A stretch of DNA of 63,951 nucleotides, counting the filler. It is 14 parts of 14 records of this genome, joined end to end, with 100 filler letters (N's around TTAATTAATTAA, not from the genome) between each part and the next. Parts side by side here need not be neighbours in the genome. Positions count along the whole stretch, not along the records: positions 60,510 to 63,951 come from SRR7504441_20034; 13 more parts are not named here. One strand, given 5' to 3'. The translations under genes were made by a program, and so were the position numbers. Under the pieces are notes generated by a model. That model did not search any database, was not told the origin of the DNA, and was given only the letters and a program-made list of their open reading frames with translations. This document shows, piece by piece, positions 8,757-63,951 of the stretch. The stretch's first letter is position 1. The number at the start of each line of letters is the position of its first letter.

Positions 8757-8856
8757 NNNNNNNNNNNNNNNNNNNNNNNNNNNNNNNNNNNNNNNNNNNN
8801 TTAATTAATTAANNNNNNNNNNNNNNNNNNNNNNNNNNNNNNNNNNNNNNNNNNNN
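8757..8856. other. Artificial contig linker (N44-TTAATTAATTAA-N44), first of 13
   Basis: Identical 100-nt linkers also at 14652-14751, 19488-19587, 23692-23791, 27002-27101, 32813-32912, 35919-36018, 39100-39199, 43384-43483, 47537-47636, 51990-52089, 56131-56230 and 60410-60509. The 12-mer puts stops in all six frames. Confidence 0.98.
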
Positions 8857-14651: not shown

Positions 14652-14751
14652 NNNNNNNNNNNNNNNNNNNNNNNNNNNNNNNNNNNNNNNNNNNNTTAAT
14701 TAATTAANNNNNNNNNNNNNNNNNNNNNNNNNNNNNNNNNNNNNNNNNNNN

Positions 14752-60409: not shown

Positions 60410-60509
60410 NNNNNNNNNNNNNNNNNNNNNNNNNNNNNNNNNNNNNNNNNNNNTTAATTAATTAANNNNNNNNNNNNNNNNNNNNNNNNNNNNNNNNNNN
60501 NNNNNNNNN

Positions 60510-61098: not shown

Positions 61099-63951
61099 AT
61101 GGTACCCGGCCGCACTGGCGGTTGAGCTGACCCGAGCTGGGGCGCAGGCACCGAAGCGGAAGCGGGTGGAGCGGATCGACTGCATCTGCGGGGACTGCCA
61201 CGGGCTGGACGAGGACTGCAACCTGTGCCGCGAGATGGCCATGGTCTGCTGCGAGACCTGCCTCTGCTGGCAGCACTGCGGTGCCCACCCCGCCCGGCCT
61301 GTGACCACAGCCGGTGGGCAGCTTGCCTGGGGATGATGACGCTCGCCGAGATCCCTACCGAGTTTTACTGCGAGCGCTGCGGACCGCCCGAGCTGCCCGA
61401 GCTGCCCGAGGACGTCTGGGTGACCCGGTGCCCGCCCTGGCGGACCGGGCTCATCCGCGGGTGCAGCTGCATCTGCGGCGACAGCCACGACAGTACCGCG
61501 GGCTGCGCTATCTGTGCGCCGGCCGAGCCCGCTGGTGCGAAGGCGGTCAGGCGAGTCGGCCGCGACTGCGATGGTGTGCTGCGACGACTGCGGCTGCTGG
61601 AGCCACATGGGTCGGCCCGGGTTTGGTCTGGGCTCAGCTGCTGGCGACAGGGTGTGTGGGGATCCTGACTAAGGAGCAGATCCCGACAGCTGAGTGGTAC
61701 TGTCACCTATGTCTGGATAAGAAGGTAATCGGCGGCTCAGCCCTGCTCAATCGGCGGCTACAGGGCCCGCGAGCTGCCACCGGCCGTGGGCGAGGTCGAG
61801 GACGAGGTCGAGGACGAGGTCGAGGCCGGGGGCGAGGCCGGGGACGAGGACGGGTGGGGGGTCGTGGGCGAGCCAAGTGCGCTCCAGCCAGGCGCAGTAC
61901 GGCTCACCAGGGGCCAGGCCAGCGCCACCGGAGCCTGAGCCCGAACCGGCGGCCCCCAAGCGGGTTTGCCCCCACTGGGCGCCTAGTGGGCTGACCGGCG
62001 AGGCAGAAGGGCCGTGTGAAGCCATGGGATGCCGCCAAGCTCACCCCGAGGATGATAGAGGCGGCCAAGCCGCGATTACAGTTGAGCAGCTCCAGGACCG
62101 CTCAGAGCAAGCACCCGCTGTCGGCCAAGGCAGGCGGCCGGCTGGCGTGCTGCGGCCAGCTGCGAGATTCAGGTGCGAGGAGTGCGCCCGCCGGATAAGC
62201 TCGCCGTCGAAGTGGGCGACCACATCGACGCGCATGACGACTTCTTCCAGTGGTACCCTTCCCGAGGTCGGCCGGCTCCAGGCCGGGCTGAGCGTTGGGC
62301 AGTGCTGAATATGGTCGACGGGTACGCATTCATCAGGTTTGGAGAATACCCTGCCAGGTTCAACACTTGGATTCCGATCAACTGCGGTGGGCCGCCCCCC
62401 GGGCCGCCTCACGCGGGTCGACAGGTCGGATGGCCCCTCTGAACACGTTTACGCAGGGATCGCCCACCGATGCAAAGACTGTGGGCACGACTGCCAATAT
62501 ATCGGTTGGTGCCACTGTGCTGGTGAGTCTGCCTCACAAGAAGGAGAGTGCATGGCACTCATGCCGAGCAGTGGCTACCTCTGAGGACGGCGAGAGCGTG
62601 TGCGTAGAGCTGGATCTAGTCTCGGAGGGCTACCTGTGGTTGGATATAAGGACTGGCAATGTGGGCATCTTTGCAACGGACCAGAAACCCGACAAAGGGT
62701 ATAAAGAGGGCACGGTGTCTGAGGCGGCAGCAAAGGCCAATTTCCACGCTTTTATCATCCGGAACAATCGGTTCGAGGTACCCAATCGATACACCGAGCC
62801 TGCCTTTATCGGGACTGGTGCATACGGGTGCGTGTGCTCAGCCATGGACACGTCTTTAAAAACGAATGTGGCGATTAAGAAAATATTCGACCTTCAGAGT
62901 TTGGACCGCGAGGACCTGCGTCGGACCCTGTCGGAGATCAAGGTGTTGCGGCACCTTCGCGGGCACGAGCACATCATCCACCTTCAGCAGGCATTTCCGC
63001 CTTTCGGGGGAGATACGAGCATGAACGAGCTCTACCTGGTGCTCAAGAGTTTCGAGGACGAGTCGCTCGCATCAGATCTCAAGCGGTACATCAAACAAAA
63101 TAAAATCATCAGCCTCGAGTGCATCCAGAGCTTTGGCCGGCAGCTTTTCTCGGCGCTCACGTATATCCATGGAGCAGGGATTGTCCATCGCGACCTGACT
63201 CCAAGCAACATCCTGGTGGGTCCGAATGGAGTGATCAAGGTGTGCGACTTTGGACTTGCAGCCTCAACGGTCAATCTTGGCCCTGATGGACTGCATACGT
63301 ATGTGGTGATGCGCTGGTATAGGGCACCAGAGTTGCTCTGTGGCCAGGCCCACTACGGGAGTGCTATTGATATATGGTCAGCTGGGTGTGTGCTAGCCGA
63401 GCTTATTGGGCGCAAGCCTGTGTTTCCGGGCAAGACTGCCAAAGACCAATTGAAGATCATCGTCAAGGGATTGGGTAAGCCGCCTCCAGCTGAGGTCGAG
63501 GAGTTCCTACTTGGAAGCAGTCAACCTGAGTTGCTCAAAGAACTGCCTGCCGCCACTGGTAAACCTTGGGAACAGCTAGTACAGGGCCCGGCCACTCCAG
63601 CGCTGGCAGAGCTGCTGGCAGCCACACTGACCATCAACCCTCAAGCACGAGCCTCGGCCAGCCAAGTACTCGAGCAAAGTACGTGGCTTGGAAAGGGTCC
63701 AAAGGTGGCATCGACCGAGCCCAGCCCAGGGCTATACGAGTTTAGTGCGGCGGATACGTCCGTGGAGGAGTTGCACGAGCTGTTGCATGCGGAAGTTACC
63801 AAGGACTTTGCTAGTCCCAGCTCCAATAATTTGGCGAAGCCGACAAGTAGTGAGCCAGAGGTCGCGCAGGAGCCAGCGGCTGGAGCGGAGCCTAAAGCTG
63901 CGGCTAGTGGCAAGGGTAGTGGCAAGGGTAGTGGCAAGGGTAAGGGTAAGA
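61099..63951 (+). CDS. PHD-PHD-(RG)n-Tudor-like-Tudor-like-atypical MAP kinase fusion, 3' partial; kinase absent from the ORF track
   Basis: 11 introns of 36-46 nt (61102-61147, 61281-61321, 61428-61466, 61514-61550, 61611-61650, 61725-61763, 61877-61917, 61964-62006, 62130-62172, 62267-62302, 62387-62424). Last exon from 62425 is open to the window end and encodes FEVPNRY..IGTGAYGCVCSA..VAIKKI..HRDLTPSN..CDFGLA..HTYVVMRWYRAPE..DIWSAGC..FPG. Confidence 0.82.

Follow-up and report, generated by a model that had tools for sequence, protein, structure and literature searches.

The window, a stretch of 63,951 nt of DNA, ends in a contig that carries one spliced gene for a protein joining chromatin-reader domains to a MAP kinase (MAPK). 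From its N-terminus the protein runs through two PHD fingers, an arginine-glycine (RG) tract, two Tudor-like barrels and a MAPK-type kinase, all encoded on the plus strand. A sequence-only reading of the window had proposed this architecture, and full-length orthologous sequences show the same order of parts. Taken alone, the gene and its architecture are very probably real. The fuller proposal is that the protein is nuclear, docks on chromatin and phosphorylates nearby chromatin proteins independently of a MAP kinase kinase (MAP2K); for this statement as a whole, the functional part of which we infer, we estimate a probability of roughly 0.55. The gene is that of a Telonema-related marine protist.

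The window is a concatenation of 14 separate contigs (about 3-9 kb, guanine plus cytosine (GC) content 0.50-0.68) joined by 13 spacers of the form N44-TTAATTAATTAA-N44, at positions that include 8757-8856, 14652-14751 and 60410-60509. Genes on either side of a spacer are therefore unlinked, and both chimerism and truncation had to be weighed for the reader-kinase gene, which sits on the final contig (60510-63951, 3442 nt). Splicing out eleven introns of 36-46 nt (ten GT-AG and one GC-AG; eight of the 11 with a length that is not a multiple of 3) leaves 12 exons and 803 codons with zero stops, in a frame still open where the contig ends. Such a frame comes cheap in a GC-rich contig: a blind search from the ATG at 61099 reached the kinase frame via three arbitrary GT-AG excisions, and 970 sets of two or three candidate introns leave the frame open across the low-complexity middle. 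Since many arbitrary intron sets do as well, the open frame alone is weak proof, and the model was fixed instead by what it encodes and by homology. Removal of 61281-61321, 61428-61466, 61514-61550 and 61611-61650, for instance, restores two paralogous Cys4-His-Cys3 fingers.

Homologues were sought with the last exon (62430-63950) in a collection of 5.8 billion proteins, and the top matches (P0001, P0002 and P0008, at 61% identity) already combine PHD and kinase. Two full-length, intron-free sequences are decisive for the gene model: P0121 (750 aa), a Trinity transcript of Telonema subtile held in EukProt, the collection in which the sequence-only reading had suggested looking for this combination, and P0122 (768 aa), from a 2.4-kb assembled contig. 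The 803-codon model is collinear with both (identical residues number 433 of the 724 aligned with P0121 and 437 of the 729 aligned with P0122, ~60% in each case), and its junctions are free of gaps except in the low-complexity linker. When orthologue proteins were compared with the contig by tblastn, matches fell in frames 3, 2, 2, 3, 1, 1, 2 and 1, following exon order; residues 10-47 of P0121 match 61166-61279 at 58% identity, and a 12-residue gap falls precisely at intron 10. The earlier claim that taking out eleven short introns gives one frame is thus borne out by the collinear alignment, with one correction: intron 9 is 62130-62172 (43 nt) and GC-AG, because SAK|VRGV is contiguous in every homologue.

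Other searches returned little. Word-based searches found only four proteins with the two-barrel region and only three, all orthologues, with the PHD pair, and the ESM Atlas gave no usable match to P0121 residues 1-400. Of 210 pattern matches in a metagenome scan with the window protein, none was confirmed. A second scan, using an alignment, confirmed 395 relatives among 598 stretches; the best eight of them (L001-L008, 33-41% identity) are paralogue-type contigs of 2 kb, the others ordinary MAPKs. Neither scan found a genomic orthologue.

The family was placed in a tree of 36 rows: 11 family members and 25 named matches chosen from the 120 listed, with no CDK, DYRK, CLK or RCK rows. P0008 was too short for a row, and P0003 is cut off inside barrel 1. 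The window family groups with MAPKs against GSK3, with a Shimodaira-Hasegawa-like approximate likelihood-ratio test (SH-aLRT) value of 100, and falls outside the group that all 22 reference MAPKs form (SH-aLRT 93); its own monophyly reaches an SH-aLRT of only 61. Within it, subclade A comprises the window protein, P0121, P0122 and P0003 (SH-aLRT 99), and subclade B the other seven rows (98). Telonema subtile has members of both (P0121 and P0130). PHDs are found in all four window-type sequences in which the N-terminus is covered (window, P0121, P0122/P0002 and P0008), and no PHD was found in the subclade-B proteins with 95-145 residues before the barrels (P0004, P0127 and P0132). Barrels and kinase are thus common to both subclades and the PHD pair to one, and therefore barrels plus kinase form the older unit, to which the PHD pair was added 5'. 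The family is small, its members known to date coming from Telonema subtile and from environmental sequences.

Natural variation is in line with the proposed frame. We aligned the contigs of four public runs of related strains (two DNA and two RNA-library) to the window contig. All 13 substitutions in model exons, which fall in exons 3, 10 and 12, are synonymous in the model frame: one at 61377, four at 62190-62205 and eight in exon 12. Of the other substitutions two are in introns and six upstream, and 4/4 indels are also 5' of the ATG. Purifying selection thus acts on both gene halves in this frame. Matches at 61788-61837 and 63909-63950 were discarded as low-complexity repeats common to unrelated contigs.

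The kinase (62739-63794, from N-extension through C-terminal helix) had been described in the sequence-only reading as a full CMGC/MAPK domain. It has a complete MAPK fold but is not canonical in two of its motifs. The Pfam Pkinase model matches 62430-63950 with an E value of 1e-54, the domain itself being 62796-63677. The best 60 sequence matches in the PDB are all MAPKs (E 3.4e-60 to 1.4e-53, over residues ~100-456), in the order MPK6 (3.4e-60), then p38-beta and ERK2, and cover the domain from N-extension to C-terminal helix. AlphaFold2 modelled the window's exon 12 with a mean predicted local distance difference test (pLDDT) score of 74.8, the kinase core reaching 85-93, and Foldseek matched this model to ERK2 and MPK4 at template-modelling (TM) scores of 0.86-0.91. 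The G-loop (GTGAYGCV), VAIK, HRD, DFG (63246-63254) and APE (63324-63332) are all present. The departures lie in the activation loop, with HTY (63294-63302) in place of the TxY found in 6/6 reference MAPKs, and in the catalytic loop, with HRDLTPSN (63186-63209) in place of HRDLKPxN. The loop reads HTY also in P0121 and P0122, N-H-Y in P0003 and I-N-Y or I-S-Y in the seven subclade-B members, so that the Tyr, kept in 11 of 11, is the sole conserved residue of the motif. The DPSD stretch of ERK2, which we take to be part of the acidic common-docking patch, aligns with G-P-K-V at a posterior of 5-6 of 10, that is, with moderate confidence. According to PMC11011113, TxY and a three-tier cascade define the conventional MAPKs and are lacking in the atypical ones.

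PHD1 (61181-61380) and PHD2 (61468-61712) each show, once spliced, all eight Cys4-His-Cys3 ligands. Exon 2 (61148-61280) opens with the basic APKRKRV and encodes the first part of PHD1 up to WQHC; excision of intron 2 (61281-61321, 41 nt) restores the ligand pattern, with the second part of the finger in exon 3 (61322-61427), followed by an acidic and proline-containing linker. PHD2 is spread over three exons (61467-61513, 61551-61610 and 61651-61724), separated by introns 4 (61514-61550, 37 nt) and 5 (61611-61650, 40 nt). Seven copies of the finger could be aligned, two each from the window, P0121 and P0122 and one from P0008, and all share C-x-C-G-D-x-H-x5-C-x2-C...AMVCC-x2-C-x2-W-x-H-x2-C...C-x2-C. 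Beyond the eight canonical ligands, His-x5-Cys-x2-Cys and the first Cys of AMVCC are invariant in 7/7 copies, and these four extra His-Cys3 residues could possibly make a third zinc site in each finger. In the orthologues, Pfam PHD (PF00628) scored 26.2-36.0 bits on the second finger against a cut-off of 24; the first finger matched PHD_5 only, with 19.5 bits where the cut-off is 27. When six single-exon pieces from the 5' half were run against Pfam, no credible match came out, HEWD (E 0.096) and TrAA12 (E 0.61) falling far short of their cut-offs, and phmmer with the PHD1 exon found no match in the PDB at E up to 10.

The start of the window protein is basic, of the PKRKRV type, which resembles the consensus of a nuclear localization signal (NLS), and K/R runs lie between the PHDs of the orthologues. 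Downstream of PHD2, exon 7 (61764-61876) encodes a GR repeat that derives from a species-specific 12-nt microsatellite (61791-61852). P0121, P0122 and P0008 have Lys/Pro-rich linkers at that place and no RG tract. The suggestion that the protein regulates itself through Tudor binding to its own methylated RG tract cannot therefore describe a conserved mechanism, since all three orthologues lack the tract; in the window's own species such binding is possible.

Between the PHDs and the kinase lie the two barrels. Barrel 1 starts at 62206 and is encoded by exons 10 and 11 (62173-62266 and 62303-62386), with intron 10 (62267-62302, 36 nt) inside it; barrel 2 (62514-62669) lies in exon 12. An alignment of this region from six homologues, together with the window's own barrel 2, served as a profile for an exhaustive search of 1.84 billion representatives, and 886 proteins matched at E up to 1e-3. 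A Pfam scan of 33 of the 150 profile matches listed identified four as kinases of the window's family, and 28 of the other 29 carry MBT, Tudor-knot, Agenet, Tudor_4, SAWADEE or chromo-barrel matches. Among PDB sequences the profile hit, through barrel 1, Tudor1 of PHF20L1 (E 1.7e-9) and Tudor1 of PHF20 (E 2.7e-6), with which barrel 1 has in common the motifs KWYPSR and F..W..R[YF][DN].WI (F..W..RY.EWI). The AlphaFold2 model of an orthologue's module contains two five-strand units (mean pLDDT 58.9, barrel 1 at 70-89), and Foldseek listed for it Royal-family structures: Tudor, MBT, tandem Tudor, tandem Agenet and SGF29; chromo-barrel domains were among the matches of Foldseek and VIA-align taken together. 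VIA-align placed Tudor domains on top, with a Z of 8.1, which the tool grades as middling, and a root-mean-square deviation (rmsd) of 1.1 over 54 residues. In the model of the window's own exon 12, barrel 2 (residues 29-80 of the exon-12 protein) has five predicted strands at pLDDT 68-83. Both barrels are thus predicted to fold SH3-like, and barrel 2 is poor in aromatic residues.

Two side observations concern this region. The barrel-1-type domain is a widespread repeat in protist proteins (P0129-P0264, one of them from Leptophrys vorax), where its partners are UBA, RING, OTU, ankyrin, FYVE/TIR, PHD-like and DNA-methylase domains. The best-conserved stretch outside the kinase is the inter-barrel linker (62430-62513; R-[ML]-A-P-x-x-T-F-[TS]-x-G ... 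G-T-T-A-[ND]-[IV]), above the barrels themselves.

From these parts we propose a mechanism. The basic start would mediate import into the nucleus; there, histone tails or nucleosomes would be bound by the PHD pair together with the PHF20L1-like barrel, and the docked kinase would phosphorylate neighbouring chromatin proteins. Input from a MAP2K seems unlikely, since TxY has lost its activating Thr and the acidic docking patch looks degenerate. The likeliest control would be self-activation on the loop Tyr, favoured because that residue is kept in all 11 family members; self-activation on Tyr is known for GSK3, DYRK and ERK7. A more specific evolutionary version can be offered as a tentative idea: the telonemid lineage may have rewired a MAPK, swapping the cascade input (TxY Thr, docking patch and catalytic-loop Lys) for a PHD-PHD-Tudor-Tudor chromatin input, so that a single polypeptide would read lysine methylation and phosphorylate the same or a neighbouring tail with no MAP2K, as a built-in methyl/phospho switch.

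Observations that weigh against the proposal of a chromatin-docked kinase touch its readers, its kinase and its gene model. For the N-terminal half, orthologues stood in for the window's spliced protein in the Pfam and AlphaFold2 work. On the kinase-linked homologues, Pfam Agenet (PF05641) reached at most 21.1 bits (P0004) with a cut-off of 27, and Pfam MBT (PF02820) at most 16.6 bits (P0130) with a cut-off of 22. Barrel 2 had no sequence match to any solved Tudor when the profile was compared with the PDB. The cage of barrel 1 is itself imperfect. According to PMC13285377, the cage of PHF20L1 Tudor1 consists of Y24, Y29, F47, W50 and Y54, plus D23; the substitution Y24A markedly reduces or abolishes binding, and PHF20, with R24, shows no detectable peptide binding. 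In the HMMER alignment, the window's barrel 1 has D at D23, Y at Y29, F at F47, Y at W50 and F at Y54, and Y24 is replaced by Asp, with a Phe adjoining. Given this replacement and the effect of Y24A reported there, reading of methyl-lysine by barrel 1 is not assured, yet from the aligned residues it is plausible.

In another possible role, the readers would bind methylated non-histone proteins or ribonucleoprotein (RNP) granules, like the germ-cell protein STK31/TDRD8, and in the window's species the RG tract would serve in RNA binding or as a methyl-arginine ligand. Methyl-arginine is likewise read by Tudor domains, the VIA-align matches include the Tudors of SMN, TDRD and Tudor-SN (Z 6-8), the window protein does have a GR tract, and STK31 is reported to combine Tudor with a kinase domain. 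We consider this role unlikely, however, with the closest sequence match being the methyl-lysine reader PHF20L1 Tudor1, the two PHDs and the NLS-like start indicating the nucleus, and the RG tract missing from the orthologues.

In the kinase, the point of doubt is the catalytic loop. The motif HRD[LI]TP[SA]N is found in 4/4 members of subclade A (window, P0121, P0122 and P0003), while the near-universal Lys is kept in 7/7 members of subclade B and in 7/7 reference kinases, and the change from Lys to Thr may leave activity low or altered. Together with the missing activating Thr, this would suit a kinase that is weak or dead, in a protein that serves as a reader scaffold (a pseudokinase). Set against such a scaffold are the intact G-loop, VAIK, HRD Asp, DFG and APE, the eight exon-12 variants, all synonymous, and the 64% identity with orthologues over 354 columns of the kinase, which indicates strong constraint. 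We regard it as improbable, and a chromatin-docked kinase as the likelier reading.

As for the gene model, the contigs of the four runs show no splice joints, their cover being patchy and uninformative on splicing or contiguity. A 272-nt contig (depth 2, 7 differences) from the oligo-dT RNA library X7 lies unspliced over 62149-62420, so that intron 10 and the greater part of introns 9 and 11 are kept; carried-over DNA or an RNA with retained introns could each account for it. Two contigs from RNA run X3 match 62899-63173 with one difference each, and the sequence is thus present in a polyA library, which does not by itself prove transcription. No record from the four runs spans 62421-62671, and this is no evidence either way on contiguity.

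One could accordingly split the locus into a PHD/Tudor gene ending before 62425 and a separate kinase initiated at the ATG at 62430, where the frame is open from 62292, all the more as these contigs gave no RNA junctions for the window's species. But Met 62430 lies inside the conserved G-R-[ML]-A-P-x-x-T-F and is Leu in the paralogues, the orthologous sequences continue through this position, and a start there would sever barrel 2 from barrel 1. A separate start, raised in the sequence-only reading as something that would undo it, was for these reasons rejected, and we hold two genes to be extremely unlikely. Barrel 2 and the kinase lie within one exon (62425 onward), and their junction needs no splicing, as had been stated.

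The composition of the contig invites a further explanation, that it is an assembly chimera or that a kinase retrocopy was captured behind an intron-rich reader gene. GC drops along the contig from ~0.70 to ~0.55, the first 1.3 kb hold 11 introns, the last 1.5 kb being free of them, and the four runs leave 62421-62671 unspanned. Yet the GC excess is confined to introns (64-84% GC, richer than the adjoining exons) and low-complexity exons: exons 6 and 11 (0.53 and 0.50) are already like exon 12 (0.56), with no break, and GC at third codon positions (GC3) tapers off gradually, starting at 0.93 and reaching about 0.6. Independent transcripts show the parts in the same order, and DNA run X1 carries pieces of both gene halves at similar depth; a chimeric contig is thus not supported. 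The capture of a retrocopy, which the sequence-only reading had suggested for the intron-free kinase, does not fit, because the boundary between the intron-rich and intron-free parts falls between barrel 1 and barrel 2, inside the older unit of barrels plus kinase that occurs without PHDs in the sister subclade; it is not the point of fusion. Introns at the 3' end can be lost through cDNA recombination, and such loss, which accounts for the pattern equally well, is the simpler candidate for the intron-free half. Chimera and retrocopy are, in our estimate, very unlikely, and one continuous gene is the reading we keep.

The remaining features complete this gene model. The proposed start codon (61099-61101) is all that exon 1 codes for; the frame 5' of 61148 has no ATG, and the N-terminus, M|APKRKR, compares with MKRK or MGKRK in orthologues, so that ATG 61099 is a plausible start. 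Intron 1 (61102-61147, 46 nt, GT-AG) has CTGAC 21 nt before its 3' end. Intron 3 (61428-61466, 39 nt) is in-frame, uses the donor GTGCCC as does intron 2, and corresponds to 13 codons missing from orthologues. Intron 6 (61725-61763, 39 nt) is in-frame and stop-free, and the frame does not force its excision; that of intron 7 (61877-61917, 41 nt) is required by a frame shift, with ambiguous precise borders. Exons 8 (61918-61963) and 9 (62007-62129), parted by intron 8 (61964-62006, 43 nt), encode a Pro/Glu-rich linker and after it a conserved segment that ends at SAK. Intron 11 (62387-62424, 38 nt, GT-AG) has CTCAC 17 nt before its 3' end, and CG|RMAPLNTFT is contiguous in orthologues. The model is least certain at intron 1, at intron 6 (in-frame) and at intron 7 together with the RG exon, none of these being anchored by orthologues. 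A scan for the YTNAY branch motif found it in only five of the 11 introns and was not used as evidence.

Exon 12 (62425-63951) encodes the conserved inter-barrel linker, barrel 2, the kinase and a disordered tail (63795-63951) that orthologues lack, and is open at the contig end, as had been noted for the window end; the contig stops inside this tail, and the kinase domain is complete. Near that end lies a 12-nt tandem repeat (63905-63942). The contig ends in this repeat, which codes for GKGS repeats (63905-63951) and probably explains where assembly stopped, no stop codon being seen up to that point. None of the four upstream and antisense open reading frames of the contig had a Pfam match.

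To our knowledge, MAP kinases are almost always single-domain enzymes, and their route to chromatin is an indirect one, by way of transcription factors or adaptors. If the proposal is true, a direct coupling of mark reading to the phosphorylation of nearby proteins has evolved naturally, and the protein would be a compact model for methyl/phospho cross-talk. It would also be a lineage-specific innovation of Telonemia, a deep-branching and barely studied group. The gene adds a gene-structure record for a telonemid-type genome (introns of 36-46 nt, very GC-rich, one of them GC-AG), and the catalytic-loop Lys to Thr change and the extra His-Cys3 set of the PHDs are oddities that can be tested. 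The literature searched (on PHD/Tudor-MAPK architectures, Telonemia, kinomes and reader domains) describes no PHD/Tudor-MAPK protein. In a pan-eukaryote survey of chromatin proteins (10.1101/2021.11.30.470311) the words 'kinase' and 'Telonem' are absent from the main text, and its supplements may list such architectures. The earlier claim that no protein of this architecture has been described stands for that literature, but the window protein is not unique, with unannotated orthologues in public transcriptome sets: the sequence family is already in databases, and it is the architecture that appears undescribed.

Among known systems, the window kinase shares the full fold of the MAPKs ERK2, Arabidopsis MPK6 and p38, with 34-36% identity to ERK2, but the protein adds ~400 N-terminal residues of reader domains to it. 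The absence of an intact TxY is a trait that it has in common with the atypical MAPKs ERK3/4, NLK and ERK7 (PMC11011113). On the reader side, PHF20L1 and PHF20 likewise have a tandem barrel and a PHD, and barrel 1 is homologous to their Tudor1, with D23 and four of the five cage positions alike in kind. In the window protein, however, the order is reversed, with the PHDs first; there are two PHDs, a kinase is attached, Y24 is Asp, and between barrel 2 and PHF20L1 Tudor2 no relation in sequence could be detected. STK31/TDRD8 is an animal protein reported to join Tudor to a Ser/Thr kinase domain; its kinase is not known to be a MAPK, nor the protein to have a PHD. UHRF1 (its TTD-PHD), SGF29 and the tandem Agenet proteins AGDP1 and ADCP1 of plants all read methylated H3 tails through tandem Royal-family barrels and match the two-barrel model in fold, although these are fold-level matches only (11-17% identity, rmsd 10-12 Å over the barrel pair), and none of them has a kinase, which the window protein carries behind its own pair of barrels.

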